Below, piece by piece: positions 12,425-49,979 of a DNA stretch of 53,765 bases. The notes under the pieces are model-generated. The model was given only the letters and a program-made list of their open reading frames with translations, did not search any database and was not told the origin of the DNA. Within the stretch, counting starts at the first letter, position 1. Every line of letters begins with the position of its first letter. The position numbers and the translations under genes were made by a program. Source of the DNA: a virus (taxonomy: Duplodnaviria > Caudoviricetes); the IMG/VR virus record IMGVR_UViG_3300032046_000032, positions 1 through 53,765 of that record; one strand, written 5' to 3'.

Positions 12425-13122
12425 GCTAGGATCGCCTCGAGGTTCAGCTCTATACGCTCCAGGGGGATAGGAGCATCCCAGTCCAAAGAAGCGTGCCCGC
12501 TATGCAACGCCATACTGTGCTGAGCGTAGGCAATGGGGGCTCCAGAATCAACGCCCCTAACAGGCATTTGCATTGCCTTGATATGACTGAGCTCTCGAAG
12601 AGGATCTTCATAGAAGCCTAGCAAGTGAATGTCATACTTTCGAGTGAGCCCTAAGTCGTGGATAAGTCTCAAGGCGTGTGCTCTGCCGCCAGCAAGCGCT
12701 TCGTAGCGCTTAGCTATACCAATGGAGCGCCCACCTATCTCTTCAAGCTGTTGCAAGCATGCGGACCACTCACCCCAGGTCTTGCCTTGGGGGATTAGCA
12801 TACGCTTGCAAGGCGGAACGAAATGGGCAGCATCCCAAGTAGCTCTGGCGGTTGCAGGTCCGTCATCCAACACGTCGGGCATACAGATCTCATCCGCATC
12901 GACCCTCTCAGCGGCTGCAAGAACTTGGCCAAACGGAAGACCTGCATGCTCTGCCGCCCCGTTGTCGACAATGATAAAGTCGCCGCGTTCGTGTGCACGC
13001 GCATAGAACCTTACGTAGTCAGAGTCGTCGCCGGCATACTGACTCAGGACCATGTGGTACGAGAGTCTATACTGAAGCACAAGGGTGGACGCCCACAGGG
13101 GCGCGATTAGTGCGAACTTCAT
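12415..13122 (-). CDS. dpdA: Compact TGT-fold transglycosylase, DpdA-like (inserts 7-deazaguanine into DNA)
   Basis: Ordered TGT motifs IIVDNGA, MPDV, IPQG, SIGI, IHLLG, GVDSG; translationally coupled to folE in a que cluster. Confidence 0.75.
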   Translation of the reverse strand: MKFALIAPLWASTLVLQYRLSYHMVLSQYAGDDSDYVRFYARAHERGDFIIVDNGAAEHAGLPFGQVLAAAERVDADEICMPDVLDDGPATARATWDAAHFVPPCKRMLIPQGKTWGEWSACLQQLEEIGGRSIGIAKRYEALAGGRAHALRLIHDLGLTRKYDIHLLGFYEDPLRELSHIKAMQMPVRGVDSGAPIAYAQHSMALHSGHASLDWDAPIPLERIELNLEAILACM

Positions 13123-13718
13123 TTTGTCAATCCTGACAGGACGAGGAACTCCTGACGGGCTTCTGACGCCGTTAAGTAGACACCACGCATCTCGGAAGTA
13201 CGCATGACAGCGTTATGTTCGTTCACTCCACGACATGACATACAGGTGTGTACGGCTTCAACAACTACCGCGACGCCCATTGCTTTGAGGTTATGCTTCA
13301 AGAAAGAAGCAATGTCTCTCGTTAACTGTTCCTGCACTGAAGGACGCTTAGCGTACCAATGTACTAGACGGGGTATTTTACTCACGCCGACCTGCAACTC
13401 GTTTGGAATATAGCCGACGTGACACTTACCATAGTACGAAAACAGGTGATGCCGGCATATCGAGCTAAACTCGATGCCTGCAACAACAATCATCTGGTTC
13501 GCGACAGCAGGGAATGTCGTGAACTTGAACGGCATCTCCGTCTCCGGCCTGAACTCAAGCATCGCTGCCAGCCAGCGTTCCGCCGTTCGGTATGCAGAGT
13601 CATCCCAGCACTCGTTGCCGAAGATATCCTGTAGCATGATCTCTAAAGCTTGGACGCTGTCAATATCAATTGGAGTATACTCTCTCTCTATGTCATGATT
13701 GTTCGAAGGACCGGTCAT
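13119..13718 (-). CDS. folE: GTP cyclohydrolase I
   Basis: SICRHHLF, GVSKIPRLV, QEQLT, AVHTCMSCRGV motifs; start set at ATG 13718 after AAAGGAG. Confidence 0.95.
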   Translation of the reverse strand: MTGPSNNHDIEREYTPIDIDSVQALEIMLQDIFGNECWDDSAYRTAERWLAAMLEFRPETEMPFKFTTFPAVANQMIVVAGIEFSSICRHHLFSYYGKCHVGYIPNELQVGVSKIPRLVHWYAKRPSVQEQLTRDIASFLKHNLKAMGVAVVVEAVHTCMSCRGVNEHNAVMRTSEMRGVYLTASEARQEFLVLSGLTK

Positions 13719-13930
13719 TGGTGCTCCTTTCTCCATATTATGATTGTTCGAATGTTAAAGCATATCAAAACGACTTGTAGGCTAACTACAGCCCAGGACG
13801 TGGGTGTGATGGTCAAAGCCCAAGTCATAAAGACAACGCTGGACACCATGTACACATACATCGCGGCCATGCGATGGCGCGCCAGCAACCATGTACCTAC
13901 TAAGCTTAATCCCGCGCCGAGCCAGTCCAT
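13715..13930 (-). CDS. Small 3-TM membrane protein, PnuC/SemiSWEET-like
   Basis: 71 aa: MDWLGAGLSLVGTWLLA...; three hydrophobic helices; coupled to queE and folE. Confidence 0.55.
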   Translation of the reverse strand: MDWLGAGLSLVGTWLLARHRMAAMYVYMVSSVVFMTWALTITPTSWAVVSLQVVLICFNIRTIIIWRKEHQ

Positions 13931-14571
13931 TACTTCACACCGATCCTAAACTGTAATCTGTCGCCGTAGCGCCAGTCGGGATGTTTGTTAAGCCAGGATA
14001 GCGCCTTTACAATATGCTCCTGCGAAGGCGGCGTGCCCTCAGGCATCAAGGTACATATAGGGGCTCTTCGTGACACCACGGCAACCTCCTGCATAACCTT
14101 CTCAACGAGGTGCACGTCAAGGATGTCGTCCACAACCCACTTGACCTCAAAAGCCTGTACTTGGATGTCCTTCGGAGCGGCATACTTAAGGCGCTCCTTC
14201 GGGGACCAAGTTATAAAGTCCGGAGTGCGAACGCCTTTCAGCGAGTTCTGTCCCGATGTCTCGAGCTGAATGCGAAAGTCGTGGCTCCACAAAGATTGAC
14301 CTGCGTCACGAAGTTCGACGAACAACTTGTCGAGGTCGTATAGCGTAGGTTCGCCGCCTGTCACGACCACCAAAGGTCTAATAGGCTTGCAGGTGGCAAG
14401 TATCTCGTCGACTGTCATTTGCTTGCCACCTTTAGTCCAGGTGTACTTGGTGTCACACCATGTACAGCCTACGGAACATCCTTGGAGACGGATAAAGGTT
14501 GCAGGTGTGCCTGCTAGTACACCTTCTCCTTGGATTGACTGGAATATTTCGTTCACGGAATACGTAGTCAT
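13930..14571 (-). CDS. queE: 7-carboxy-7-deazaguanine synthase (radical SAM)
   Basis: EIFQSIQGEG, FIRLQGCSVGCTWCDT (CxxxCxxC), VTGGEP, ETSG, SPK motifs. Confidence 0.95.
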   Translation of the reverse strand: MTTYSVNEIFQSIQGEGVLAGTPATFIRLQGCSVGCTWCDTKYTWTKGGKQMTVDEILATCKPIRPLVVVTGGEPTLYDLDKLFVELRDAGQSLWSHDFRIQLETSGQNSLKGVRTPDFITWSPKERLKYAAPKDIQVQAFEVKWVVDDILDVHLVEKVMQEVAVVSRRAPICTLMPEGTPPSQEHIVKALSWLNKHPDWRYGDRLQFRIGVK

Positions 14572-14624
14572 AAGGCCTCCTGGGGGCAAGCAGGTACTGC
14601 CTCGCCCCTGTGTAAGTGCACCTG

Positions 14625-14993
14625 CTACTTCTTCAGTGGCACAGTCTCGAACTTGATTTGCGGAACCTTCGGCGCGTCAGGATTGACGTGCGTCTCCAAC
14701 AGCTCGTCTTTCCAGTTCGCAATAGCATTACCGTCCTTGTCGACATCGCGGCGTTGGAGATACAGCTTCGGATTGCGAAGAATCGGTCGGATAGGCAAGA
14801 TGTGGTTCTTCGAATAAGCGGCAATGCTTGCGCTCACTGAAGCGGGTTTCCGACCGATCTCGCTACTGTCAACTTCGGCCATGAAGAAGCCAGTGTTCAG
14901 GAAGGCCGTAACGATCGGTCCGATCACGCCACCGCGTGAAGACAGGACGCCTTGCGCTTCAACGGCGTCTGGATCAACCTGCAGGAATTTCAT
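14625..14993 (-). CDS. Hypothetical protein
   Basis: 122 aa with GAAGGAA RBS, co-oriented in the operon. Confidence 0.65.
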   Translation of the reverse strand: MKFLQVDPDAVEAQGVLSSRGGVIGPIVTAFLNTGFFMAEVDSSEIGRKPASVSASIAAYSKNHILPIRPILRNPKLYLQRRDVDKDGNAIANWKDELLETHVNPDAPKVPQIKFETVPLKK

Positions 14994-15036
14994 TTTGTTC
15001 CTTCTCTTTCTCTAGATAATCGATAGCCAGTTTGCA

Positions 15037-15426
15037 CTAGCTAGGGTGGTTCGCCGCTTGTATCATGCCGGCGAGTTCATAACGACGAGCAACCCAATCG
15101 GCTGGAATGGGATGTCCCGAAGTACCCATAAGATTGGTCATTTCGAGCGCCCAGAGGGCACGTTGCTTCTTAACGACTAAGAAAGGCAGAATAGAGCTCA
15201 GGATCTCAGCGGCCTTCTTACCGCCCCACTTGAGATTAGTAACCCTACTACCGCCAGGATGCATCGTGCCGCCATGCATCTGTTGGATAGCCTTGAGGAT
15301 GGTTTGATCGTTCTGCGAGATGACTACTGAAGGCATCGGCACCGAACTCGTTCTATCTACCGTCACGCACCCTTCGCCCTCGAAGAATCCTGCAATCCAT
15401 TCATCAGTAATATGGTACTCAGGCAT
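15037..15426 (-). CDS. LAGLIDADG homing endonuclease (single motif, free-standing)
   Basis: WIAGFFEGEG motif, ISQND, ILPFLVVKK. Confidence 0.85.
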   Translation of the reverse strand: MPEYHITDEWIAGFFEGEGCVTVDRTSSVPMPSVVISQNDQTILKAIQQMHGGTMHPGGSRVTNLKWGGKKAAEILSSILPFLVVKKQRALWALEMTNLMGTSGHPIPADWVARRYELAGMIQAANHPS

Positions 15427-15679
15427 GCTCCTCCTTTTTAAGGTAATCAATGGCTAACTGTGCGTAACCCTGTATGTCACGCCAGCCGTCAACCTTAGCT
15501 GGGTTGCCTAACAACCGGATGGCTTTGTTAAAGACCATCACTAGTGGGAACCATAGCGCAGGGAAGGCCTTGTGCAAGTTCAGTAACGGTTCCCAGAACT
15601 GCTGTAAGAACTCACCCGTGGTACGCCAGGCGTCTGCGTATTCGGCGTTACGCTCTTCAACGAGCTTCTTAACGTCCAT
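15419..15679 (-). CDS. Nucleotide-modification-associated all-alpha protein (DUF1599/DUF6378-like)
   Basis: ERNAEYADAW...KAIR...DGWRDIQGYA pattern; start at ATG 15679 after AAGGAGG. Confidence 0.6.
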   Translation of the reverse strand: MDVKKLVEERNAEYADAWRTTGEFLQQFWEPLLNLHKAFPALWFPLVMVFNKAIRLLGNPAKVDGWRDIQGYAQLAIDYLKKEEHA

Positions 15680-15689
15680 CAGCACCTCC

Positions 15690-15992
15690 TTATCCTTGCC
15701 GCAGGTACGCGGCAGCTTTCTCAAGTAAGATAGGGTCATCCTGAAAGAGGCCGATAGCCGTATTACAGGCAGGACAGAGAAGACTACGTATAGCTCCTGT
15801 ACCATGATCGTGATCGACTACGAACTGCTTCCTAAAGTACGACTGGTCGCGACCGCAGATCGCGCACTTGCCATTCTGCTTAATAAACAGTGCAGTATAC
15901 TCGTCGGGTGTAATCCCATACAATCGTTTGAGATTCGACCGCCGGTGAGCAGCTCGCCCTTGAGGTGTCTTGTAATACGGCTTCTTGGTCAT
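15690..15992 (-). CDS. Endonuclease VII-like (His-Me finger) nuclease
   Basis: YGIT...QNGKCAIC...VDHDH.TGAIRSLLCPACN motif. Confidence 0.9.
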   Translation of the reverse strand: MTKKPYYKTPQGRAAHRRSNLKRLYGITPDEYTALFIKQNGKCAICGRDQSYFRKQFVVDHDHGTGAIRSLLCPACNTAIGLFQDDPILLEKAAAYLRQG

Positions 15993-16432
15993 TCAGCCTC
16001 GTATACGTACGTAGCAGTACTCTTTGGTGTTTCATTTACAGTGATGACAAGTTCGTTGCGGGCACATCCATATATTGTAGCCCGTAAATCCGTGAAGACT
16101 TCGTGCCACAGAAACCTAGCGAGAAACTCGGCTGTTGATGCAGGCGCGTCTAGCAGGAACGCGTCGCCGCGTGCCTGCGCCACCACCGCGTAAGGGTCGA
16201 GGGCATTATGGTTACTTCGTGACACGATGTACCGATGGTCGATCGAGTCAACAATTGGCTTCACAATTTTGTCCAGTTCACCGTAATCGATGAGCATCCC
16301 ATCTCCCGGAAGGATCTTGCCAGCGTACGCGACGACGACTTCGTAATTATGGCCGTGGAGCCGGCCACATTTGGGGTGACCCTCAATTCGGTGAGCTGCA
16401 CAGAATGAATACTTACGTGTTATCGTGTACAT
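15989..16432 (-). CDS. queD: 6-carboxy-5,6,7,8-tetrahydropterin synthase
   Basis: FCAAH, KCGRLHGHNY, IDH, STAEFLA, VNET motifs. Confidence 0.95.
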   Translation of the reverse strand: MYTITRKYSFCAAHRIEGHPKCGRLHGHNYEVVVAYAGKILPGDGMLIDYGELDKIVKPIVDSIDHRYIVSRSNHNALDPYAVVAQARGDAFLLDAPASTAEFLARFLWHEVFTDLRATIYGCARNELVITVNETPKSTATYVYEAE

Positions 16433-17166
16433 TAGAGCCTCCACATTTTCCTAACGCAGCCATCCCAGTCAACAGGAACGCGGTACGGAACAGGGTCGAC
16501 GACACCATTATGCTTGAACGCTTCGATACGCTCGATGCAAGTTGGACACTCGCCGCACTGTAAGTAACCTCCGTTGCTAATGCCTACAGGTGAGTAGCAA
16601 GACCACGTTAGATGAAGAGGCGCCCACAGCTCCAACGCGCGCTTACAAACGTCAGCCTTCGACATCCAGATAAACGGGAACAGCAGGCGAACTTCATGAT
16701 ACGAGCCGACATAGACTGCGTTCGCCATGGCCCCGAGGAATTCCGGCGTGCAGTCCGGGTAAGCAAAATTATGGGCATCTTCCCCGTGCATACCGGCGTA
16801 GACGTACTGCGCCTTATGCGTGATGGCAATCGTTGTCGCGATGCTCAGCAGGTTCGCGTTACGGAAAGGGGCAACTGTGGGTGACGGTCCCACCGCTTGA
16901 CCCATCTCTTGATAGGTCAAGTGGGGCATCGTACCTTCGCCCATCAGAGCGGAGTTAGCACCCGTGAAGATACGTGGCAGTTCGACAACGACGTGTTCAG
17001 CATGGAACCATTCTGCAAGTTCCTTCGCAGCGTTCATCTCAGCCTGTTGATGTAAGCTACCGTAGCCTGCTGTTACGGCAACAAGTTCGTTGCAACCGTC
17101 TGCTCGTGCTTGTTCTGCGACGGTGCAAGAATCCATGCCGCCAGAAAGTAATACAATTGCCTTCAT
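16432..17166 (-). CDS. queC: 7-cyano-7-deazaguanine (preQ0) synthase
   Basis: LLSGGMDS, PFRN, YPDC, TWSCY, CGECPTC motifs; start at ATG 17166 after AAAGGAG (the frame stays open further upstream). Confidence 0.95.
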   Translation of the reverse strand: MKAIVLLSGGMDSCTVAEQARADGCNELVAVTAGYGSLHQQAEMNAAKELAEWFHAEHVVVELPRIFTGANSALMGEGTMPHLTYQEMGQAVGPSPTVAPFRNANLLSIATTIAITHKAQYVYAGMHGEDAHNFAYPDCTPEFLGAMANAVYVGSYHEVRLLFPFIWMSKADVCKRALELWAPLHLTWSCYSPVGISNGGYLQCGECPTCIERIEAFKHNGVVDPVPYRVPVDWDGCVRKMWRL

Positions 17167-17311
17167 AGAGCTCCTTTCTTTGGTAGTTAGTGAAAGTGTT
17201 ACTTGTACACTCGGTGTCATAGCTGCGGACACAAACGTCGGAGTTTCGAACATCAGAACCTCACTAGTTGAGCGTCGCAGAGACATGGGATATGCGGTTG
17301 TCAGACAGATG

Positions 17312-17668
17312 TCATTCATCGCTTGCCCGGCCTCTACGGCGCTCAAGTTGTTGCACCAACTTCTTTTCATGTTCGACGATGCGATGACAGTTAGCGCATA
17401 AGACATCGCACTTCGGGAGTTCTTCTTTTAGCATGTCAAAGCCTATCCGCCACCAGTCCGATATCGGTACGATCTTCTCAGTCGGGTCAGTATGATGCAT
17501 CTCAAGGACAATTGGATTCCGTTCACCACATCGGCGACATCCTCGTTCAGCTTTGTAATCAAGTAGCCACTGCCGACGCTTCTCAACCGATTTGGCGTGC
17601 GACGCCTTACGGGCACGTCGGTGCTCCACCTGATCTTCCGCATAATACACCTGGTCACTATAAGTCAT
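17312..17668 (-). CDS. HNH endonuclease
   Basis: CRRCG...EMHH.DP...KCDVLCANCH. Confidence 0.85.
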   Translation of the reverse strand: MTYSDQVYYAEDQVEHRRARKASHAKSVEKRRQWLLDYKAERGCRRCGERNPIVLEMHHTDPTEKIVPISDWWRIGFDMLKEELPKCDVLCANCHRIVEHEKKLVQQLERRRGRASDE

Positions 17669-22512: not shown

Positions 22513-22548
22513 ATTATAAAGGCAAGTCTAAAAAAGCACAAGGGGTCA
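22513..22548 (-). promoter_or_regulatory. Sigma70-type promoter for the replication operon
   Basis: TTGTGC-17 bp-TATAAT, preceded by TGACCCC, which resembles the early-promoter box. Confidence 0.7.
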
Positions 22549-24874: not shown

Positions 24875-24947
24875 TAGCGGGGGGTGGACTCGAACCACCG
24901 ACCTCCTGGTTATGAGCCAGGCGAGCTGACCGCTGCTCTACCCCGCA
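24875..24947 (-). tRNA. tRNA-Met(CAT), initiator-like
   Basis: Full cloverleaf; anticodon loop CTCATAA; T-loop GTTCGAGT; 1:72 mismatch and A11:U24; CCA not encoded (CCT). Confidence 0.9.
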
Positions 24948-25593: not shown

Positions 25594-25769
25594 ATGCCCT
25601 CCTAAGGGGAGTGCAGGCAGATCTCCTTCGATGCGTGAGACCTGCCTGCAGATGCCGCCCCACCGTCAAACGAAGGCCGTTAGGCCTCCGACACAAGTGG
25701 GACAGCTCAGCGAGTGGGAGGGTCGTTCACCACCTCCCACTCACAGTGAAACAACGCGGAGGTTAGGCG

Positions 25770-26703: not shown

Positions 26704-26742
26704 ATTATAATAGCATTCTCGGTTTTTCACAAGGGTCATTGA
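26704..26742 (-). promoter_or_regulatory. Repeated early promoter, copy 1
   Basis: TCAATGACCC-TTGTGA-17 bp-TATAAT. Confidence 0.8.
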
Positions 26743-27879: not shown

Positions 27880-28020
27880 TTATGACCCACCGTTCAGGTA
27901 ATGGACACGAGCAGCCGCAGACTCGCGGTCGGCATGATCGCTGTCTATGTGCCATTTGCCAGACGGGTCGTAGAATCCAACTGTCCACAGGCCTGGTTCG
28001 GACTGAATGTAGACGTACAT
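27880..28020 (-). CDS. Small 46-aa phage protein (not in ORF track)
   Basis: MYVYIQSEPGLWTVGFYDPSGKWHIDSDHADRESAAARVHYLNGGS; GAAGGAG RBS; first gene after promoter copy 2. Confidence 0.8.
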   Translation of the reverse strand: MYVYIQSEPGLWTVGFYDPSGKWHIDSDHADRESAAARVHYLNGGS

Positions 28021-28057: not shown

Positions 28058-28097
28058 ATTATAACATGAACCAAAGGTTTTTCATAAGGGGCATTGA
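28058..28097 (-). promoter_or_regulatory. Repeated early promoter, copy 2
   Basis: TCAATGCCCC-TTATGA-18 bp-TATAAT with extended -10 TGn. Confidence 0.8.
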
Positions 28098-28735: not shown

Positions 28736-28764
28736 TCTCAGTCTCCTTTCTTCGAGCGAACATA

Positions 28765-28879
28765 GGTGGTGCAGGACTCCCGATAACCAGTCGGTAGGAG
28801 GGGGGCAATGAACAGTCCCTGTCCTGCACCACCAGGTGTGAGGGCAGGAATCGAACCTGCCTGTAACACCAGGCTCACC
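28765..28879 (-). ncRNA. Structured intergenic RNA: tRNA-like T-arm minihelix plus 13-bp stem
   Basis: GGCAGG-TTCGATT-CCTGCC flanked by GTGAG/CTCAC (28835-28879); GGTGGTGCAGGAC/GTCCTGCACCACC stem (28765-28833). Confidence 0.5.
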
Positions 28880-28881
28880 GA

Positions 28882-29121
28882 TTACTCCTTGTAGATGGAG
28901 AAAAACCGCACGCCCTTATATTCAAAGAAGGACTTGAAAGGGTATTCACTGTCTCCGCGTGACGTGGTAACCAACTCACATCCTGAGTAGGCAGGCATAA
29001 GTTCACGCAGGTTAGCTAACCCGCGGATGTACACGCCGTCAGCAGTGATGCTTACAAGTGGCGTCGAGTGGTAGACTTTGGTGAACTTCTTCTGCATCCT
29101 AACGAGCTCTTCAATGTTCAT
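28882..29121 (-). CDS. Hypothetical protein
   Basis: 79 aa with AAAGGAG RBS. Confidence 0.7.
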   Translation of the reverse strand: MNIEELVRMQKKFTKVYHSTPLVSITADGVYIRGLANLRELMPAYSGCELVTTSRGDSEYPFKSFFEYKGVRFFSIYKE

Positions 29122-29135
29122 CTGTTTCTCCTTTC

Positions 29136-29195
29136 AGGGCTGAACCGCCCCTGGCTGGCCATCAGTTCACTGGTGGCCAGGTGTGAAGGTTCAGC
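29136..29195 (-). ncRNA. Repeated pseudoknot-like leader motif, copy 1
   Basis: TGAAC, long hairpin, then GGGC-GGTTCA-GCCC, then AAAGGAG. Confidence 0.6.
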
Positions 29196-29199
29196 TAGG

Positions 29200-29442
29200 C
29201 TACTCGCCTGGGGCCATCTTGCGGCCCACGTACATGTTGATCCTCAGGTCGGTGCCGGGGACTTTGGTGAAGCCGCCGGTGTTGGCGACGCCCATCATCT
29301 TGCCACTGTTCGACAGCCCAGTTTCTTCGTGCAAGTCGACGACCAAGATGAGTAGATGTTTGTCCTCGATAATAATGGAAGAGACGTTATTGCCGACATA
29401 CTTCATCTCTCCGAGGTCAACGGTTACGGTATCAGGGGGCAT
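29200..29442 (-). CDS. Hypothetical protein
   Basis: 80 aa with AAAGGAG RBS; SNSGK..VANTGG motif. Confidence 0.7.
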   Translation of the reverse strand: MPPDTVTVDLGEMKYVGNNVSSIIIEDKHLLILVVDLHEETGLSNSGKMMGVANTGGFTKVPGTDLRINMYVGRKMAPGE

Positions 29443-29461
29443 AGTATTCTCCTTTCAGTTA

Positions 29462-29534
29462 CTGAGGCTGAACCGCCTCGGCTTGCAGACAAACAGCGGC
29501 GTTGCCACTTGTCTGCATGCGGTGGACGTTCAGT
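29462..29534 (-). ncRNA. Repeated pseudoknot-like leader motif, copy 2
   Basis: TGAAC, long hairpin, then GAGGC-GGTTCA-GCCTC, then AAAGGAG. Confidence 0.6.
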
Positions 29535-29751
29535 GACTGTTAATGCACTGTTGTAGGAAGACACTGCCGGTGCCGTCTACAAAGTTACCGTTGAGCTGGT
29601 TGCAGAAGAATTCAACTTGGGCAGCTGTGCTTGCACGACGAAACTCTTCGATGAACTCGAGACGCTGTTGCGGTGGTACGAGTCGCTGCCACTTAGATAG
29701 GAACTGGAACTGGACTCCTGTTGCTTGATGTAGGGACATCGATAGTGTCAT
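29530..29751 (-). CDS. Hypothetical protein
   Basis: MTLSMSLHQATG...; GGAGG RBS; ATGA overlap. Confidence 0.6.
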   Translation of the reverse strand: MTLSMSLHQATGVQFQFLSKWQRLVPPQQRLEFIEEFRRASTAAQVEFFCNQLNGNFVDGTGSVFLQQCINSH

Positions 29752-29909
29752 GTTACCTCCACAGGCGTCGGCAGCTCGATCGGGATTGGCTTTGGAACGG
29801 GCCAATTTGGTACTGCGATTGGCTCTTCCTTGGGCTTCGGCACCCTCTTTGGAATGGGCTGGGGAATCGGGCGCTCAGTGATTCTTACATGTTTACCAAT
29901 CTGGGACAT
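29748..29909 (-). CDS. Proline-rich 53-aa peptide (not in ORF track)
   Basis: MSQIGKHVRITERPIPQPIPKRVPKPKEEPIAVPNWPVPKPIPIELPTPVEVT; GAGG RBS; fills the gap exactly. Confidence 0.7.
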   Translation of the reverse strand: MSQIGKHVRITERPIPQPIPKRVPKPKEEPIAVPNWPVPKPIPIELPTPVEVT

Positions 29910-30168
29910 CTTGGTACCTCATTTCTTTGAGCAATACGCGGACTGCGTCTTCTTCTTCTGCAGTGAGACGCAGCTTTACAGTACGGCGTACTCTGCGGGA
30001 TTCCATGTACGCCTTAACGCTTTCTTTGGTAAGGTACACTTTGTTTACGCCAGCATTGATTGGCTCAGTATGATCGACCACCAAGCGTCCCCGTTTCACG
30101 AGTGCGCGTACGAAGTGGTGATCGCAACCGATCCTTAAACTGGCTTCTTTGATACTTATGTAGTCCAT
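29893..30168 (-). CDS. MerR/Xis-like HTH DNA-binding protein (paralog 3)
   Basis: YISIKEASLRIGCDHHFVRALVKRGRL...LRLTAEEE. Confidence 0.7.
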   Translation of the reverse strand: MDYISIKEASLRIGCDHHFVRALVKRGRLVVDHTEPINAGVNKVYLTKESVKAYMESRRVRRTVKLRLTAEEEDAVRVLLKEMRYQDVPDW

Positions 30169-30887
30169 AGGGTCTCTCCAGCAGGTAGCACGTCGTTAGG
30201 ACTGAGTACGGGGACCCCGTACAGCCTCGATACTACCTTGGCGAAGTGCTTGTTAGGGTAGTTTAGCACCCCCGTGATAACCGCGTACTCCGCTCTGCAG
30301 CCGACGGCACACTCGATAATCGTACCGCCAATCTGCGCTCGGACTACGACAGCCCTTGATGAAACGTAGGCCGCTGCATCCTTTACCCCCCAAAAAAAGT
30401 ACAGACCGCAGGAGCAAGTCTCCCCCATGCATGCTCCAGCGTAACCGGGCCGCGGACGCTTGGCACAATACGCGCGGGTTACTTTGTGCGGGTGCCAACA
30501 GAAGTCACCGTCTCTTGATCCTAGGATTCGCTCTCCTCGGCTATCGACTGTTAGGCATATGGCCTTCCAGGCTACGTCTACTGAAGGTAAGTTAGATTCA
30601 GGCTCTGGCTCTGGCTCTAGTACAGCCCCAAGTGTAGCAATGGTACACGGCGGAAAGTGTGTTATAACAAGTACGCCTAGGTCGCGTAAGTTAGCGCCAT
30701 GCTTGAGGGCTATATGCCTAAGGGAGCGTAGGTGCGATCCAGAGTTACTTGTCCATTGGGCGCCCGCGCACTCGGCACATGTGTCGTCGATCGGTGGGTG
30801 CCAGTAGCCCCGTGCGTCAAGATGCAGGTTTGGCGGCTGTAGCCGCTTGGCGACATACTCTGCAAACGCGCTGTCTAATGCCTTCAT
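30156..30887 (-). CDS. Cys-rich conserved-looking protein with CxCGLY motif
   Basis: N-terminal CxxC..H..H; C-terminal W....RAYC...CSCGLYFF...GGTIIE...GCRAEYA. Confidence 0.65.
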   Translation of the reverse strand: MKALDSAFAEYVAKRLQPPNLHLDARGYWHPPIDDTCAECAGAQWTSNSGSHLRSLRHIALKHGANLRDLGVLVITHFPPCTIATLGAVLEPEPEPESNLPSVDVAWKAICLTVDSRGERILGSRDGDFCWHPHKVTRAYCAKRPRPGYAGACMGETCSCGLYFFWGVKDAAAYVSSRAVVVRAQIGGTIIECAVGCRAEYAVITGVLNYPNKHFAKVVSRLYGVPVLSPNDVLPAGETLWTT

Positions 30888-31021
30888 TGATTCCTCCTTT
30901 CGTATCGAGGTTGGTGGGCAGGGGCTAGGGGGAGATAACCCAGCCCCTACCGACCAGTGAGTAAATGCTCACCAGCGCAGCCACTAGCCCCCCCCGCTAA
31001 TGGCTGCTAGGTGCGCACCAG

Positions 31022-31366
31022 TTACTGTGGAACAGCAACTGCAACGAGCTTCGCAGCTTTAGCTTTGGGGACGTACGCACGCTTCAGGTTGACGCGCAGC
31101 CCTGTGGGCAGCGTGGCAATCTCTTCGGCGGTAGCGTACAGGAAGTACTTCGTGCGCCCGTCCGCGCGGCCGAACCGCTTGCCGACGCCTTTGCGCCAGG
31201 CTTCGAGGTCCGTACCTAGGATCTCGTGGCGCACACCTTCCTTGCGTCCTTCGATCGGCGCTAGTACGCTAATCAGCGCACCAGTCTTGATCGCGTGGCG
31301 AACGTACTGGGCGGTCAGGCCCACTTTCTTCGCCGCGGTTGTGATGGTGTACACGTTCGATTTCAT
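31022..31366 (-). CDS. MerR/Xis-like HTH DNA-binding protein (paralog 4)
   Basis: YTITTAAKKVGLTAQYVRHAIKTGAL...RADGRTKYFLYATAEE; start at 31366 after AAAGGAG. Confidence 0.75.
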   Translation of the reverse strand: MKSNVYTITTAAKKVGLTAQYVRHAIKTGALISVLAPIEGRKEGVRHEILGTDLEAWRKGVGKRFGRADGRTKYFLYATAEEIATLPTGLRVNLKRAYVPKAKAAKLVAVAVPQ

Positions 31367-31418
31367 GATGTTCTCCTTTCTATATAGGTTTCGAGCAGTC
31401 TTGTAGCTCGATAAACAA

Positions 31419-31458
31419 ATTATAACCTGTCTCCTATGAACTTCATAAGGGGCATTGC
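31419..31458 (-). promoter_or_regulatory. Repeated early promoter, copy 3
   Basis: GCAATGCCCC-TTATGA-18 bp-TATAAT, followed by a hairpin and AACCTATATAGAAAGGAG. Confidence 0.8.
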
Positions 31459-31460
31459 GG

Positions 31461-31868
31461 CTAGCTCTTTTCTGGATTGTGGAAGCCGTATTTCTCTGCA
31501 ACAGCCCGGTAAAGTGGAAGGCCGTACGGCGCGTACTCTGAAAAGTTGACGAGGTCGTCTTCGAGGATCCATAGCCACATCTTGACGACGCCATACATTA
31601 GCGATGATGAGATCCCTCGCCCGTTGATGGCCTTCTCAAATGCAAACGCCAGATCTTCTGAGAGCTGACGGCGTACGGCTTCTTCTGTCCACGGTAGCGC
31701 CGTCCAACTGTTAGGATCTGCTTTGTAGCCAAACTTCTCTACTTCGGTGACTGGGAAGAAGCTTACGAGGCGTGAGTAGTCGCGGCTGTCGATTATTGCA
31801 CATGTTCGACGGTCATAGCCAACAGTACCGTCTTCCACAGCTTTCAAGACTGCGTCTTGAGTTAGCAT
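31461..31868 (-). CDS. Hypothetical phage protein
   Basis: 135 aa with AAAGGAG RBS. Confidence 0.75.
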   Translation of the reverse strand: MLTQDAVLKAVEDGTVGYDRRTCAIIDSRDYSRLVSFFPVTEVEKFGYKADPNSWTALPWTEEAVRRQLSEDLAFAFEKAINGRGISSSLMYGVVKMWLWILEDDLVNFSEYAPYGLPLYRAVAEKYGFHNPEKS

Positions 31869-31883
31869 GTGACTCTCCTTTCG

Positions 31884-32060
31884 TTAGTCGACTGGGTCGA
31901 GCTCGTCGCGTTCGTTTTCGCGGCGAGCCAATTCTCGGGCGAATTCCGCCCAGCGAGGGTTGCTCTCGTCGATCATCTGAGCGAGCTGTTCGTCGGTGTA
32001 GGACTCTACGGGGTCCATTCGGTTCCTGAATAGGAAGTCCGCGATTGGTTCTGTTATCAT
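31884..32060 (-). CDS. Hypothetical protein
   Basis: MITEPIADF...; AAAGGAG RBS. Confidence 0.6.
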   Translation of the reverse strand: MITEPIADFLFRNRMDPVESYTDEQLAQMIDESNPRWAEFARELARRENERDELDPVD

Positions 32061-32207
32061 ACGTCTCCTTTCTGTGGCTTGGTTACTTAGGTAAAGCGCA
32101 CATTGAGGGGCCCTATCGTCACACATGCCCGACGTTGATAAGGCCCCGTGATGTACGCTCAGCACAGGGCTGAGTGTTATATCGATTCTGGTGTCAGCTG
32201 TTAGCTG

Positions 32208-32399
32208 TCAGGCGTCGATGCCGGCTTCGCGTTTGTCTGCGCATGTGTCGCAGTAGTACCCACTAGGCCGGCCTTCAGTGTGCTTCCTGTAGCGCCACTT
32301 CCATGTAGGCCCTGTGCGTGGCAGCTTCTTTCCACAACTGCATCGCCACGTACTACGTGTTGACGCGCGGGTATGGTTTCCGTTCTTAGTCCTAGTCAT
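32208..32399 (-). CDS. Small zinc-ribbon-like protein
   Basis: CSCG...YCDTC; AAAGGAG RBS. Confidence 0.6.
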   Translation of the reverse strand: MTRTKNGNHTRASTRSTWRCSCGKKLPRTGPTWKWRYRKHTEGRPSGYYCDTCADKREAGIDA

Positions 32400-32505
32400 T
32401 GTTTCTCTCCTTTTGGTCGATCGGGTCGATCGTAAGTCTGTGGCATGTGCCACATTCGCAAGCGCGCTACCGTCTAGGTGGTACGCTAGCGGTTGGGGTC
32501 ATGCG

Positions 32506-32772
32506 TTATGCAAAGATACCGCTTTCCAGCATACGCGCCAACATATGTTTGCATACTATGCCTCGGTACGCATGGTCAGGGCACTCGCACCGCCAAATGG
32601 TGGTGTGGTACTTGGTGATGCTTGCCTGGTACGTGTCGCTGGTGAGTGCCAAGACGAGTGCGCTAGCCAGCCTACTAGGATCGTAACGCTCAGGCCGCTT
32701 TTCTATCAGCGTGAGAGCGAACTCGTGGTTGGATGCTATGCGCTCTTCTGATGTGAAGGGTTCAGGGTGCAT
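32506..32772 (-). CDS. SWIM zinc-finger protein
   Basis: CECPD....VCKH (CxC...CxH). Confidence 0.75.
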   Translation of the reverse strand: MHPEPFTSEERIASNHEFALTLIEKRPERYDPSRLASALVLALTSDTYQASITKYHTTIWRCECPDHAYRGIVCKHMLARMLESGIFA

Positions 32773-33037
32773 CTGCACTGAACTCCGTATGCAGGTGCGA
32801 TATCCTGTCGATGAACACCTTGCCGGTGTTGTCAACGGTGATCTCGGCTACGTACTCTTCGAGGATGTCGACACCGAAGCCCTGGTCGAAGGTGGCCATC
32901 ACCGGGTCGGAGTCTTGCTCGAGATCATTGTGCTCGCAGGTCTTGATGACGACGTTGAACGCGTCGCAGTCATCTGGGAGCTTGGCAAGCATCGCATCCA
33001 GTGCGTCGTGTGCTGCTTTCTTCTGATTCGTGTTCAT
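32762..33037 (-). CDS. Acidic hypothetical protein
   Basis: MNTNQKK...; GAAGGAG RBS. Confidence 0.6.
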   Translation of the reverse strand: MNTNQKKAAHDALDAMLAKLPDDCDAFNVVIKTCEHNDLEQDSDPVMATFDQGFGVDILEEYVAEITVDNTGKVFIDRISHLHTEFSADAP

Positions 33038-33297
33038 AGTACTCCTTCGTTGACGTGGTCGATCGCGAAACAGGTTTTCATCACGAGGTCGTAACAGCTC
33101 ACGTGCATCTCGTCTTGCGCATTCCAATCCATGTCCGCAAGGATTTGATCCTGCGGGAGCTCGAGCTCGGCACGCGTCTCTGCATCAGGCTCGAAGGCGT
33201 CGGTCATCAATGCGACCGCAATCTTGTCGCCATCTTCGATCTTGCCACCGCATACCTTACACTTGCGGCTGATACTGGTAAGTGGGGATACGCTCAT
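33034..33297 (-). CDS. Hypothetical protein, possible Zn-binding (CxxC...HxxC)
   Basis: KCKVCGGKI...HVSCY; AAAGGAG RBS. Confidence 0.6.
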   Translation of the reverse strand: MSVSPLTSISRKCKVCGGKIEDGDKIAVALMTDAFEPDAETRAELELPQDQILADMDWNAQDEMHVSCYDLVMKTCFAIDHVNEGVL

Positions 33298-33322
33298 TGT
33301 TTCTCTCCTTTCGATTCGATTC

Positions 33323-33799
33323 CTAGTTATATCGAATCCAGAGCTCCTGTTCATCGCGCCAATCGAACAAGACGCTCTCAAAGTCGCAGTGAACCGGTAG
33401 TAGTGCTCGTGCGGCTTGCTCGTAGATCTCTTTGGCGGTCTCATATTCATCTGGGTATGTCTCAGATGTTTTAGGTGGGGCAGGTCTAAGTTCTCCTGTA
33501 GCCTCGCTTATGCGATACGCGAATGGAGGCGCGAAGTAGACGCGCTCACAATACTTGTATCCTTCGATCTCTTGATGTATCGCGCTGATATCATCATGAG
33601 ATACGATCTCAGGATCTTTATTGAATGTTACCTTGTTACTTATGGGGGCGATCACGTCGACGTTTGCTATGTCAAAATCAACAGCGCACGCGTCGCCGAT
33701 GCTCTCAACAGCTTCGACCGCAGCTTTGAGCAGGGCTTCTAGAGCAGAATCTTGCTCTTGCTCTGTCTCTACGTATATGGTGATACGTTTCTGGGACAT
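33323..33799 (-). CDS. Two-module hypothetical protein (C-terminus paralogous to 36902-37252)
   Basis: Shares KDP.IVSHDD..AIHQE and FDWRDEQELWIRYN with 36902-37252. Confidence 0.75.
   Translation of the reverse strand: MSQKRITIYVETEQEQDSALEALLKAAVEAVESIGDACAVDFDIANVDVIAPISNKVTFNKDPEIVSHDDISAIHQEIEGYKYCERVYFAPPFAYRISEATGELRPAPPKTSETYPDEYETAKEIYEQAARALLPVHCDFESVLFDWRDEQELWIRYN
33326..33367. repeat. 42-bp perfect inverted repeat, left arm (partner 37205-37246)
   Basis: gttatatcgaatccagagctcctgttcatcgcgccaatcgaa is the exact reverse complement of 37205-37246. Confidence 0.9.
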
Positions 33800-33851
33800 T
33801 GCTTCTCTCCTTTCTATATAGGTTCCAAGCAGTATGGTAGCTTGATAAATA

Positions 33852-33891
33852 ATTATAACATGGCTCCTATGATTTACATAAGGGTCATTGA
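33852..33891 (-). promoter_or_regulatory. Repeated early promoter, copy 4
   Basis: TCAATGACCC-TTATGT-18 bp-TATAAT. Confidence 0.8.
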
Positions 33892-33912
33892 ACGGATCAC
33901 TTTATTGATCCG

Positions 33913-34101
33913 TTATATGCCTACCATCTTGCCGAAGCCTGTATGCTGGCGCTCGGTCTCAATGCGCCATTCGTCTAGGATTTCGTCAACTTGAACCCAG
34001 TCGCCGTCGATATCGTACTGATCGCGCATCCAAAGTGCAATCAGCTTGTTGCCGAGCTTAGCGAGGGCCCAGGCAATCTTGCTCTTTAGCCGTGCCTTCA
34101 T
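33913..34101 (-). CDS. Hypothetical protein
   Basis: 62 aa with AAAGGAG RBS. Confidence 0.6.
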   Translation of the reverse strand: MKARLKSKIAWALAKLGNKLIALWMRDQYDIDGDWVQVDEILDEWRIETERQHTGFGKMVGI

Positions 34102-34120
34102 TGCGTCTCTCCTTTGCTAC

Positions 34121-34180
34121 TGCAGCTGAACGGCTGCATGATGAGATGCACTAGCGGTGGTGCTAGTGCATCTGGTTCAC
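34121..34180 (-). ncRNA. Repeated pseudoknot-like leader motif, copy 3
   Basis: TGAAC, 12-bp hairpin, then TGCAGC-CGTTCA-GCTGCA, then AAAGGAG. Confidence 0.6.
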
Positions 34181-34187
34181 GCATCTG

Positions 34188-34595
34188 TTACATGCAAGTG
34201 TACTCCGCATCATCGTGATATTCGCAATCGATGTCGCCGAAGCTCACGAGCAGGGCGCTGATCTTATGTTCCCATTTATCAACGAGCTCTGCAGTGAACT
34301 TATCAGGGTCCTTCGCAACGATCTTGATACCGCGGATATCTTCGCCATCGATCTCTGCATCGCGGTAGTGTCCTGCGATCATGTCGTGGAGCTCGTATTC
34401 ATCGATCTGAACAATGTTCTTCATATCATCGAGCCACTTATACGGCTCGGCTCCTTCGACGACGGCTTCGATATCGACTGCCTGTATCTGTGCGTCGGAG
34501 ACCTTCGCAACGGCTTCGATGCATGCGCGCTGCAGCTTCGTTACATCATCTGCTGAGCACGTTTCCATGGCTAACGTTACCTTGATCTGAATCAT
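34188..34595 (-). CDS. Acidic hypothetical protein (N-terminus resembles that of 33323-33799)
   Basis: MIQIKVTLAMET...ACIEAVAKVSDA versus RITIYVET...AAVEAVESIGDA; AAAGGAGG RBS. Confidence 0.7.
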   Translation of the reverse strand: MIQIKVTLAMETCSADDVTKLQRACIEAVAKVSDAQIQAVDIEAVVEGAEPYKWLDDMKNIVQIDEYELHDMIAGHYRDAEIDGEDIRGIKIVAKDPDKFTAELVDKWEHKISALLVSFGDIDCEYHDDAEYTCM

Positions 34596-34652
34596 GTTAT
34601 GCCTCCTTTCATATAATATCGATTTCAAGCAGCATGATAGCTTGATAAAATA

Positions 34653-34692
34653 ATTATAACATGGCTCATATGATCTACATAAGGGTCATTGA
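34653..34692 (-). promoter_or_regulatory. Repeated early promoter, copy 5
   Basis: TCAATGACCC-TTATGT-18 bp (TCATATGA dyad)-TATAAT. Confidence 0.8.
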
Positions 34693-35355: not shown

Positions 35356-35395
35356 ATTATAATACGGATCCTATGTTTTACGTAAGGGTCATTGA
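35356..35395 (-). promoter_or_regulatory. Repeated early promoter, copy 6
   Basis: TCAATGACCC-TTACGT-18 bp-TATAAT. Confidence 0.8.
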
Positions 35396-35751: not shown

Positions 35752-35791
35752 ATTATAATCTGGATCCTATGTTTTCTACAAGGGTCATTGA
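35752..35791 (-). promoter_or_regulatory. Repeated early promoter, copy 7
   Basis: TCAATGACCC-TTGTAG-18 bp-TATAAT. Confidence 0.8.
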
Positions 35792-36722: not shown

Positions 36723-36762
36723 ATTATAACAGGGATCCTAGGATTTTTACAAGGGTCCTTGC
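36723..36762 (-). promoter_or_regulatory. Repeated early promoter, copy 8
   Basis: GCAAGGACCC-TTGTAA-18 bp (ATCCTAGGAT dyad)-TATAAT. Confidence 0.75.
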
Positions 36763-36816: not shown

Positions 36817-36856
36817 TCGATGACCCTTATGAAGATCATATGATCTGTATTATAAT
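36817..36856 (+). promoter_or_regulatory. Repeated early promoter, copy 9 (divergent from copy 8)
   Basis: TCGATGACCC-TTATGA-18 bp (AGATCATATGATCT dyad)-TATAAT. Confidence 0.8.
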
Positions 36857-37324: not shown

Positions 37325-37364
37325 TCAATGACCCTTATGTTGATCATATGATCCATATTATAAT
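37325..37364 (+). promoter_or_regulatory. Repeated early promoter, copy 10
   Basis: TCAATGACCC-TTATGT-18 bp (GATCATATGATC dyad)-TATAAT. Confidence 0.8.
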
Positions 37365-38006: not shown

Positions 38007-38048
38007 TGTTGTATAGGCTCTTGCGTTCACAAGAGCCGAGAGGATAAC

Positions 38049-38372
38049 ATGTCAGAGCAAGCGCAAGAAAAGTACTTTACAATCGCAATGATTGTAAGGC
38101 AAGGCTTTTCTAGGGTGTACGTGCATAGGGCTTTCGTCAAGGGATGGTTACACGGCAAGAAGGTAACAATGCCTAATAACCCCCATGTCATGCAATGGGT
38201 TTGTTTGGAAAGCGAATACCGTGCGTGGCGTAAGCGATGCCTTGCTCATAGCAATGCCGGTATATTCACAGGTACGGCAAGGCAAATTGAAGGCTTGCAA
38301 GAGTACCTAAAAGATGCCAAACCTGATGATATCGCAGCATTGCGCAAATCATTATTACCTGACGACAAGTAG
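38049..38372 (+). CDS. Divergent MerR/Xis-like HTH protein (paralog 5)
   Basis: YFTIAMIVRQGFSRVYVHRAFVKGWL...ESEYRAWRK resembles paralogs 2 and 4. Confidence 0.6.
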   Translation: MSEQAQEKYFTIAMIVRQGFSRVYVHRAFVKGWLHGKKVTMPNNPHVMQWVCLESEYRAWRKRCLAHSNAGIFTGTARQIEGLQEYLKDAKPDDIAALRKSLLPDDK

Positions 38373-38394
38373 CATGTCAGGCAACATTTCAAAG

Positions 38395-38422
38395 ATACCC
38401 TTGCATACGCAAGGGTATTTTT
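38395..38422 (+). terminator. Rho-independent terminator
   Basis: ATACCCTTGC-ATAC-GCAAGGGTAT-TTTT. Confidence 0.8.
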
Positions 38423-49469: not shown

Positions 49470-49979
49470 ATGCCGCAAGTAACGCTTCGTATTAGAAGTA
49501 ACATACCAATAGTGCGCCAAGGGTTTGAGCGCTTACGTAAAGCTGTACCAGAGATTGGTAGGATGCGTTTGTTCAGCGCCGCAAAGGAGCTTGTACGTAG
49601 GATGAGTATACCTGGCAGAGCCCCGACATATCCGATCCGTTGGGATACCGCCAAGCAGCGTAGGTCCTTCTTCGCGTCAAAAGGTTTTGGCCATGGGGTA
49701 CCTGCGGTACGGACAGACAGGTACATAAGTGGTTGGTCCGTTGAGCGCCACACTGCCCACAGTTATACCGTTGTCAATAAGGTGCTACATGCTAGATTTG
49801 TTGGTGGTCTACTGACTCGAGACACGCAATCCCAGATCCATAAAGGCAGGTGGCCACTACTGCGCGACATGTTTGAGAGGGTTGTTGCTACACTGCCCGA
49901 GACAGTTTCAAGGCACTTGATAAAGTACATAGCCCGAGGCATGAAGAGCGTGCCCACGGAAAGCGAAAGTGGCGAATGA
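49470..49979 (+). CDS. Neck protein (HK97 gp10-like)
   Basis: Basic protein; VRTDRYISGW...NKVLHARFV...QSQIHKGRW. Confidence 0.6.
   Translation: MPQVTLRIRSNIPIVRQGFERLRKAVPEIGRMRLFSAAKELVRRMSIPGRAPTYPIRWDTAKQRRSFFASKGFGHGVPAVRTDRYISGWSVERHTAHSYTVVNKVLHARFVGGLLTRDTQSQIHKGRWPLLRDMFERVVATLPETVSRHLIKYIARGMKSVPTESESGE

Follow-up and report, generated by a model that had tools for sequence, protein, structure and literature searches.

A repeated intercistronic RNA element with two covariation-supported folds in a narrow group of uncultured phages

Results and Discussion

Three copies of an intercistronic element in one phage genome

The subject of this report is a structured element that recurs between genes of the IMG/VR virus record IMGVR_UViG_3300032046_000032 (Duplodnaviria; Caudoviricetes), a complete record of 53,765 bp with direct terminal repeats that was analysed at its full length and is referred to below as the window. 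A sequence-only reading of this DNA had noticed three copies of a pseudoknot-like motif lying between stop codons and ribosome-binding sites and had proposed that they represent an undescribed cis-acting RNA. We recovered all three copies where that reading had placed them, on the minus strand (34181-34109, 29534-29449 and 29195-29128), and the window holds exactly these three. Each fills the gap between two same-strand genes and its parts come in the same order: a TGAAC box, a long hairpin of unrelated sequence (HP1), a short linker, a small hairpin with the loop (C/G)GTTCA (HP2), the Shine-Dalgarno (SD) site AAAGGAG and an ATG start codon. The open reading frames (ORFs) on either side and the parts of each copy are as follows.

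29128..29195, minus strand: copy 1, whole element; the canonical copy, 62.7 bits with the covariance model
29195-29188, minus strand: copy 1 box GCTGAACC, pairing with GGTTCAGC over 8 bp; TGAAC core at 29193-29189
29180-29155, minus strand: copy 1 HP1
29150-29137, minus strand: copy 1 HP2, stem GGGC/GCCC, loop GGTTCA
29134-29128, minus strand: copy 1 SD site AAAGGAG; the ATG at 29121 starts the downstream ORF 28882-29121
29202-29200, minus strand: stop codon TAG upstream of copy 1
29449..29534, minus strand: copy 2, whole element, 43.2 bits with the covariance model
29532-29528, minus strand: copy 2 TGAAC
29517-29484, minus strand: copy 2 HP1
29479-29464, minus strand: copy 2 HP2, stem GAGGC/GCCTC, loop GGTTCA
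29455-29449, minus strand: copy 2 SD site AAAGGAG; the ATG at 29442 starts the downstream ORF 29200-29442
34109..34181, minus strand: copy 3, whole element, 37.1 bits with the covariance model; the most divergent copy, with a box-loop helix (P1, see below) of just 5 bp
34179-34175, minus strand: copy 3 TGAAC
34173-34144, minus strand: copy 3 HP1
34138-34121, minus strand: copy 3 HP2, stem TGCAGC/GCTGCA, loop CGTTCA at 34132-34127
34115-34109, minus strand: copy 3 SD site AAAGGAG; the ATG at 34101 starts ORF 33913-34101
34190-34188, minus strand: stop codon TAA upstream of copy 3, closing ORF 34188-34628

As the sequence-only reading had it, the HP2 stems differ from copy to copy and still pair in all three, and the TGA within the TGAAC of copy 2 is indeed the stop codon of the upstream gene (ORF 29530-29805). 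The linker had been put at 3-5 nt, which holds except in copy 3, where the two hairpins are 5-6 nt apart. The pattern TGAAC-N20-50-GTTCA-N4-20-AAGGAG matches twice in the window against 0.02 matches expected, and none of 100 shuffled sequences reached two; with a wider gap all three copies match on the reverse strand, and neither the forward strand nor a reversed-pattern control gives any match. A fourth GTTCA...AAAGGAG, at 49571 on the plus strand, we attribute to chance because it lies inside coding sequence (ORF 49470-49979) and has no hairpin. A covariance model run over the window with its filters off recovers exactly the three copies, and each of them folds better than its own shuffled versions (z = -3.1, -3.3 and -4.7).

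In the collections searched, the element is confined to a narrow group of phages

A first pattern scan of IMG/VR yielded 113 stretches, in which the HP2 stem measured 0 bp in 61 cases, 1 bp in 31, 2 bp in 18, 3 bp in one and 5 bp in two; stems of at least 4 bp were found in two of the 113, from the genomes G001 and G002. G001 (53,650 bp) carries five copies and G002 (35,676 bp) nine, on one strand and all ahead of AGGAG, and both genomes are related to the window phage at the protein level. Across the three genomes, 17 of 17 copies lie on the gene strand and between genes. In G003, the closest whole-genome relative of the window phage (56-83% amino-acid identity over replication and structural genes), no copy was found.

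A more specific pattern led to two further IMG/VR contigs and to 24 metagenome stretches. The earlier reading had suggested a covariance model and a search of phage metagenomes; of the 24 stretches, 14 were confirmed by the model and ten (L144, L145, L146, L150, L153, L155, L159, L162, L164 and L166) were not. With duplicates removed, the family comprises 28 distinct copies with a GTTCA loop and one variant, spread over four IMG/VR contigs and 14 metagenome contigs. Bacterial genomes gave eight pattern matches and a looser second scan of IMG/VR gave 46 new loci, none of which the covariance model confirmed. The family is thus, in the collections searched, confined to a narrow group of uncultured phages from sediment. 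No nucleotide match to window positions 28800-30300 was found among cultured phages, all matches in a search with the PolA protein lay below 30% identity, and a search of IMG/VR with the helicase as a single protein returned nothing. A search of sequencing runs for this sequence listed a single DNA run, which may be the source sample, and no RNA run.

Two alternative folds are supported by covariation

We aligned 29 copies with MAFFT (alignment A4). Excluded were the chance-like cores of L144, L164, L168 and L169, two boxless variants (L161 near 2660 and L163 near 8240), a copy in L152 that is cut by the contig end, a solitary hairpin at window position 38016 and a TGGG/CCCA hairpin in a coding region of G001. 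MAFFT misplaced the boxes of copy 3 and of G2_32479, and the cells concerned were counted as unpaired, which makes the figures below conservative.

Three helices emerge from this alignment: HP1, HP2 and a third, P1, in which the TGAAC box pairs with the HP2 loop. Pairs that changed on both sides number 11 of 12 in HP1, five of five in HP2 and four of six in the core of P1. Overall 92.5% of cells are paired, a value set that none of 500 shuffles attains, and controls in which the pairing partner was slid along the alignment give 24-51%. When RNAalifold is given no prior structure it returns a closed fold, State A, in which P1 is extended to 8+2 bp and stacked below HP1; this lower stem of ten pairs is 93.1% paired, with double changes at eight of the ten. 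The positions flanking the core of P1 were counted as well. Between the base after TGAAC and the base before GTTCA we count G-C 12 times, C-G eight times, U-A once and U-G twice, with five mismatches; between the base before TGAAC and the base after GTTCA, U-A occurs 13 times, C-G 11 times and U-G once, with three mismatches. The major pair types, two at each of these positions, occur in all four combinations.

The HP2 hairpin is perfectly complementary in 28 of 28 copies, including those in arrays of mixed stem types. The extended P1 takes two nucleotides from each strand of HP2, and alignment columns 72 and 73 show covariation with two sets of partners, columns 7 and 6 in P1 and columns 65 and 64 in HP2. 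From this overlap, and from the two columns that each covary with two partners, it follows that the two folds are mutually exclusive and that selection maintains both, which makes the element a two-state switch and not a full pseudoknot. The sequence-only reading had left the choice between a pseudoknot and a switchable helix. Its TGAAC/GTTCA pairing is borne out by covariation at the flanks and by compensatory changes, and of its two options the switch is the one favoured; a full H-type pseudoknot is ruled out because the extended P1 occupies both HP2 strands. A partial loop-strand pseudoknot of 5-6 bp may coexist with HP2.

The single strongest evidence comes from a pair of orthologous copies. 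The variant copy, in L141 (6693-6633), has the box GGTAGAGC and the second hairpin GGGG-uGCUCUA-CCCC, whose loop is complementary to that altered box. It is orthologous to a canonical copy in L163, as the flanking sequence aligns, and of six P1 pairs, three differ between these copies by compensatory double substitutions (TAGAGC/GCTCTA versus TGAACC/GGTTCA).

The predicted energetics of the two states are lopsided. In State A, the extended P1 under HP1 forms a rod of 20-26 bp with an internal loop of about 4x5 nt near its middle; in State B, the open state, HP1 stays as it is, the box is unpaired and HP2 forms from the 3' arm of P1. With the box free, all 28 copies favour State A, the margin being 2.3-9.9 kcal/mol (median 5.6), and State A is the minimum-free-energy fold of copy 2. 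Masking the box makes HP2 appear in the predicted folds. Since State A is the more stable, HP2 is expected only when the box has been removed or is occupied.

These features point to RNA as the acting molecule: the sense strand has the more stable fold in 22 of 29 copies and is the richer in G-U pairs (48 versus 20 on the antisense strand), and at one P1 pair 16 copies have U-A and nine have U-G.

Two variants that were left out of the alignment have an HP2 with a CGTTCA loop and no TGAAC box. In L163 near 8240 (minus strand) a GGAACG is locked in a 7-bp hairpin of its own and HP1 measures 21 bp, and in L161 near 2660 (plus strand) there are two long hairpins. They may be diverged or compound forms of the element.

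Identity of the element

The sequence-only reading had not recognised a known riboswitch or ribozyme, and Rfam agrees. No Rfam 15 family matches the element in the whole window at gathering scores, and at E<=10 over 28900-34400 there are two noise matches (E 4.6 and 5.8), among them mir-3126, which scores 20 bits against a gathering score of 80 and lies on the strand opposite to copy 3. An undescribed cis-acting RNA, as proposed, is thus supported by the lack of an Rfam family and by a structure with covariation behind it. We take the element to be a new RNA family with strong structural support, and what follows on its function is argued from sequence and predicted folding.

Three other identities were considered and rejected. 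No pair of sigma-70-like hexamers lies within the elements, no U-tract follows HP1 as an intrinsic terminator would need, and HP2 is no tRNA T-arm, having a loop of 6 nt instead of 7 and, in the window copies, no equivalent of A58.

A ligand-binding riboswitch (for preQ0 or preQ1, for example) or a self-cleaving ribozyme might be considered, given two alternative folds beside a ribosome-binding site in a phage that encodes FolE, QueD, QueE and QueC-like proteins. We hold this to be very improbable. Besides the empty Rfam search, few positions are conserved outside the box and the loop, most of them paired, with no pocket or catalytic core apparent; the downstream genes are unrelated ORFs without a family match and share no pathway; and a single operon contains up to ten copies.

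The near-invariance of the HP2 loop raises another possibility, namely that HP2 is an operator whose (C/G)GUUCA hexaloop is read by a phage or host RNA-binding protein, the box acting as a competitor that hides the loop. The loop sequence is indeed the same in 28 of 29 copies, across at least 12 different HP2 stem sequences, and it recurs in a solitary hairpin close to a promoter:

38016..38037, plus strand: HP2-like hairpin GGCTCTTG-CGTTCA-CAAGAGCC, 8 bp, with no TGAAC box and no HP1

This hairpin lies just after a sigma-70-like promoter and 11 nt before the ATG at 38049. Whether it belongs to the family is uncertain, yet it shows that a 5'-proximal hairpin with a CGTTCA loop can stand alone. 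Against an operator stands the L141 variant, whose loop UGCUCUA differs and still complements the changed box, so that pairing and not loop identity has been preserved. Nor does any protein co-occur convincingly with the element: none is common to G000, G001 and G002 and absent from G003, save two small ORFs shared with G001 only, and a Pfam scan of 30 window ORFs turned up no RNA-binding domain. We consider an operator improbable.

The element ties an upstream stop codon to the next ribosome-binding site

On the coding strand the element spans 59-71 nt, from the upstream stop codon to the next SD site. The upstream ORF ends on the box's own TGA in 14 of 28 copies; in the others the stop lies upstream of the box by 1-3 nt (ten copies), 6-8 nt (three) or 20 nt (one). 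Even the variant box of L141 supplies a stop, its TAG ending an ORF of 32 codons. At the other end, HP2 stops 2-10 nt ahead of AGGAG in 27 of 28 copies, and the SD site is 5-8 nt from the start codon. A terminating ribosome covers about 12-15 nt downstream. Given stop codons in or beside the box and ribosome footprints of this size, a ribosome that terminates there would have to occupy the box and open P1. We found no helix of this kind, with a stop codon in one strand and the other strand refolding beside the next ribosome-binding site, in Rfam or in a motif-directed literature search, and we know of no described family that has an upstream stop codon in a helix and a partner strand selected to refold near a ribosome-binding site.

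One explanation for this arrangement would be translational coupling driven by termination, with no need for a nuclease: a ribosome at the stop codon melts P1, HP2 forms and downstream initiation is favoured, folded HP1 and HP2 bringing the stop near the next SD site and making downstream translation depend on upstream translation. The placement of the stop codons, its retention in the variant box, the short distances from HP2 to SD and from SD to start, and the prediction that HP2 forms only when the box is unavailable are all as this scenario would have them. Three observations argue against it. First, masking the box barely moves the predicted accessibility of the SD site (mean unpaired probability over 27 copies 0.52 versus 0.59, with changes in both directions and no consistent effect), and no anti-SD sequence is evident in the element. 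Second, the downstream genes all have strong, ideally spaced sites of the AAGGAG type, which is what independent initiation would call for. Third, two orthologous copies keep P1, HP1 and HP2 although no SD site follows for about 150 nt, which speaks against a role limited to an adjacent ribosome-binding site. Coupling of this sort is the main rival to the account that follows, and strikes us as rather unlikely.

A possible role in RNase III-type processing

The account that we favour, and hold tentatively, is that the element is an intercistronic processing and stability module of the RNase III type that refolds into a 5' hairpin. Imagine the rod of State A as an RNase III-type processing signal within polycistronic early transcripts. 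Cleavage within the 3' strand of the internal loop would leave the upstream message with HP1 as a protective hairpin at its 3' end, and the same cut would free the downstream message with HP2 at or within a few nucleotides of its new 5' end. That end would refold to HP2, giving a 5'-terminal hairpin followed by a strong ribosome-binding site. Hairpins at the 5' terminus protect bacterial mRNAs from 5'-end-dependent decay. A ribosome terminating in or next to the box would melt P1, and because it would have to do so, translation and processing would likely interact.

How far does the element resemble an RNase III target? According to the parts of the source cited here, the idealised RNase III substrate is a helix of 22 bp, loops or bulges at the target site direct cleavage of a single strand, and single-strand cleavage can leave stabilising 3' hairpins (PMC3867540). 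The predicted closed state measures 20-26 bp in 26 of 28 copies, close to the two turns (about 22 bp) of such a helix. The stem below the internal loop is about 10-11 bp long and the one above it 11-14 bp, so that the loop, which measures about 4x4 to 4x5 nt or is partly paired, falls by prediction near the helix centre. As to position, the copies lie between same-strand genes and, on the predicted transcripts, downstream of conserved promoter units at 34653 and 31419. These units have the form (CAATGA)CCCTT-N20-25-(TG)TTATAAT and number 11 in the window (nine on the minus strand and two on the plus strand) against 0.01 expected:

22513-22544, minus strand: promoter unit
26704-26735, minus strand: promoter unit
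28058-28090, minus strand: promoter unit, the next downstream of 31419-31451
31419..31451, minus strand: promoter unit heading the operon with copies 2 and 1
33852-33884, minus strand: promoter unit
34653..34685, minus strand: promoter unit CCCTT-N-TGTTATAAT, heading a two-gene operon that contains copy 3
35356-35388, minus strand: promoter unit
35752-35784, minus strand: promoter unit
36723-36755, minus strand: promoter unit
36824-36856, plus strand: promoter unit
37332-37364, plus strand: promoter unit

The units are often preceded by a stem-loop, and on their 3' side come a 5' hairpin, a conserved AACCTATATAGAAAGGAG leader and the start codon, so that the primary transcripts of the window are predicted to begin with a hairpin, a conserved leader and an SD site. 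G003 has similar promoter-hairpin-SD units. A cut at the element would give downstream cistrons the same hairpin-then-SD 5' end that primary transcripts have. In phages of the G002 type, copies of the element separate nearly every early gene, and promoter-like sites in that array are not above background (four found, 8.9 expected).

Several points weigh against RNase III-type processing. It leaves unexplained why the box should be tied to the stop codon (27 of 28 within 8 nt), and why TGAAC and GTTCA should be nearly invariant when complementarity alone would suffice. The solitary hairpin at 38016, with its CGTTCA loop and no box, hints that the loop sequence itself may be recognised. The copies of the window are the weakest members of the family, and copy 3, with its 5-bp P1, folds into State B. 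Finally, the likeness to phage T7 set out below is built on predicted folds and leans on the asymmetric 4x5 internal loop of T7 R1.1.

The position of the stop codon within an arm of the closed helix also allows a bolder scenario, in which the element is a switch actuated by ribosomes: each termination event would flip the nuclease-sensitive rod to its open form, with HP2 next to the SD site, and upstream translation would thereby set the fate of the next cistron, be it cutting, stability or translation. We put this forward as speculative and on balance doubtful. Structured intercistronic RNAs are known, among them the RNase III sites of T7 and REP-type hairpins, and covariation support for both of two folds is unusual for a motif first noticed in just three copies. 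If the switch does link termination, processing and downstream expression, it would be a compact natural counterpart to synthetic insulators based on ribozymes or Csy4. The portable unit would join a stop codon, a 3' hairpin, a 5' hairpin and a ribosome-binding site, a natural plug-and-play insulator for swapping early genes by recombination, and would help to explain how shuffled early-gene regions made of genes without relatives stay expressible. The element is small enough for direct work with reporters.

Gene gain and loss at the element

Near-identical phages differ at one copy in a telling way. A unit of 333 nt, comprising one element and a gene of 86 codons, is present in G002, L141, L157 and L158 and missing from L143 and L165; comparing L135 (G002, 14910-15313) with L143 and L165 places the breakpoints inside the repeat, the copy that remains being a hybrid of the two flanking copies. 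G001 and G002, too, differ in the genes that lie between copies. The element thus behaves as a site of gene gain and loss, whatever its function as RNA, and copies would serve as recombination points because they are near-identical direct repeats.

Could recombination be the primary role, with the element working at the DNA level as an attC-like or PeSL-like cassette-boundary site whose hairpins form in single-stranded DNA? Apart from the indel and the variable gene content, the arrays consist of small genes in one orientation without family matches. In integrons, attC sites have inverted AAC...GTT cores (consensus R'' RYYYAAC and R' GTTRRRY) around a variable imperfect palindrome and stand at the 3' end of one-orientation cassettes, often overlapping the stop codon. 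The layout of our element is similar, with AAC...GTT cores flanking a variable hairpin and a stop codon often inside the 5' repeat, as in many integron cassettes. Its cores, xYTGAAC and GTTCARY, nonetheless match the consensus at six of seven positions each and differ at position 4 in all copies. More importantly, HP2 pairs across the GTT and hence spans the would-be crossover, and the shuffling of cassettes would break its complementarity, which is perfect in 28 of 28 copies even in mixed arrays. The enrichment of G-U pairs on the sense strand argues in the same direction, no integrase was found among the 40 window ORFs scanned (a scan that was not exhaustive), and direct repeats of 60-70 nt recombine without any dedicated function. 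A primary role in DNA recombination is accordingly one to which we give little credence.

PeSLs (promoter-early stem-loops) of T4-like phages are described, in the part of the source cited, as conserved intergenic composites of short length that lie on either side of small variable genes and mediate indels and gene swaps by homologous recombination (PMC4122927). In layout and in the indel of the 333-nt unit the element is like them. PeSLs are composites of terminator and promoter, whereas the element contains no promoter and no terminator with a U-tract and, unlike them, has a stop-codon box, a second hairpin and an SD site. The promoter-plus-hairpin units of the window look more like the PeSLs of T4 than the element does.

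Gene content of the window and its relatives

Among the replication and structural genes of the window are those for a family-A DNA polymerase, a primase, a helicase, an exonuclease, the large terminase and a portal protein. The 40 distinct window ORFs scanned with Pfam or PHROGs contain no RNA polymerase or RNase. Genes adjoining the element have no Pfam or PHROG match, the sole exception being an HTH_17 protein at 29893-30168. A tRNA-Met at 24875-24947 is the only Rfam match in the whole window at gathering scores. A set of genes for 7-deazaguanine synthesis of the preQ0 type occupies 13119-17406 on the minus strand:

13119-13736, minus strand: FolE
13930-14589, minus strand: radical-SAM QueE-like protein
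15037-15450, minus strand: LAGLIDADG endonuclease gene, inserted among the 7-deazaguanine genes
15989-16444, minus strand: QueD/PTPS
16432-17406, minus strand: QueC-like protein

Other structured stretches were noted along the way. Within the 146-nt gap at 28736-28881 lies a strongly structured stretch (28836-28913, minus strand, about -63 kcal/mol), where a short acceptor-like helix accompanies a perfect T-arm like that of a tRNA, GCAGG-TTCGATT-CCTGC; Rfam yields a weak tRNA-Sec match alone (17.7 bits, E 5.9) and ARAGORN calls nothing there, and the stretch may be a tRNA remnant or a tRNA-like element. The GC-rich intergenic regions 30888-31021 and 25594-25769, both on the minus strand, contain long perfect hairpins and very stable predicted folds (about -74 and -105 kcal/mol for the folded stretches), without an Rfam match within the part searched. 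Downstream of the solitary hairpin, the 107-codon ORF 38049-38372 (plus strand) is followed by a strong intrinsic terminator at 38391-38422; for this ORF there is neither a Pfam match nor a homologue in G001-G003.

As to the relatives, the replication module of G001 (L131-L133) is inverted relative to the early region when compared with the window phage. Both ends of the G001 contig fall inside one gene, a homologue of window 1774-4680, so that the record, listed as linear and 59% complete, may be a nearly complete and circularly permuted genome. A 46-codon ORF at 27880-28020 (minus strand) shares 84% identity with one in G001 and 71% with one in L163, the latter ending just ahead of an element. 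Its homologue is absent from G003, which lacks the motif, and it is the sole small protein that tracks the motif at all, on few data.

Comparison with known systems

Repeats ahead of start codons have a precedent in Cluster K mycobacteriophages. The start-associated sequences (SAS) of these phages are, in the passages cited, asymmetric repeats that lie directly upstream of many start codons and all point the same way, with inverted repeats ahead of a subset; their function is given as unknown, with a role in translation suspected (PMC3203893). The extended form, ESAS, consists of 17-bp imperfect inverted repeats, a spacer of 4-13 bp and the 13-bp SAS (PMC3203893). Our element shares the single orientation and the place just ahead of start codons, and some SAS share the association with inverted repeats. 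Compared by description, it is built differently, from a box of 5-8 nt, a variable hairpin of 11-14 bp and a hairpin of 4-6 bp; pairing that involves a stop codon, a long variable hairpin and alternative folds are not among the features reported for SAS or ESAS in those passages (PMC3203893), and the sequences are unrelated.

A second relative in kind is the mRNA of lambda cIII, which likewise has two alternative folds near the start site with RNase III taking part in the choice between them. Bistable leaders of that sort hide the ribosome-binding site in one of their folds, whereas neither fold of the element is predicted to do so. Unlike them, the element lies between cistrons, recurs in several copies and has the upstream stop codon as its anchor.

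A further parallel, on predicted structure, is with the RNase III sites of T7. The element differs from these in sequence, to which it has no similarity, with no Rfam model linking the two, and in a lower stem that contains or abuts a stop codon; nor do we know of T7 signals in which the 3' arm of the lower stem refolds into a hairpin ahead of the SD site. In T7, five RNase III signals lie in one polycistronic early precursor, according to the part of the source cited (PMC3867540). Like the T7 series R0.3-R1.3, of which R1.1 has served as the model substrate, the element is a hairpin repeated between the cistrons of what is predicted to be a long early transcript, and like them it would present a helix about two turns long and interrupted near its middle by an internal loop, at which a nick would leave a 3' hairpin on the upstream message. 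In phages of the G002 type, the layout of the early array as a whole resembles the early operon of T7.

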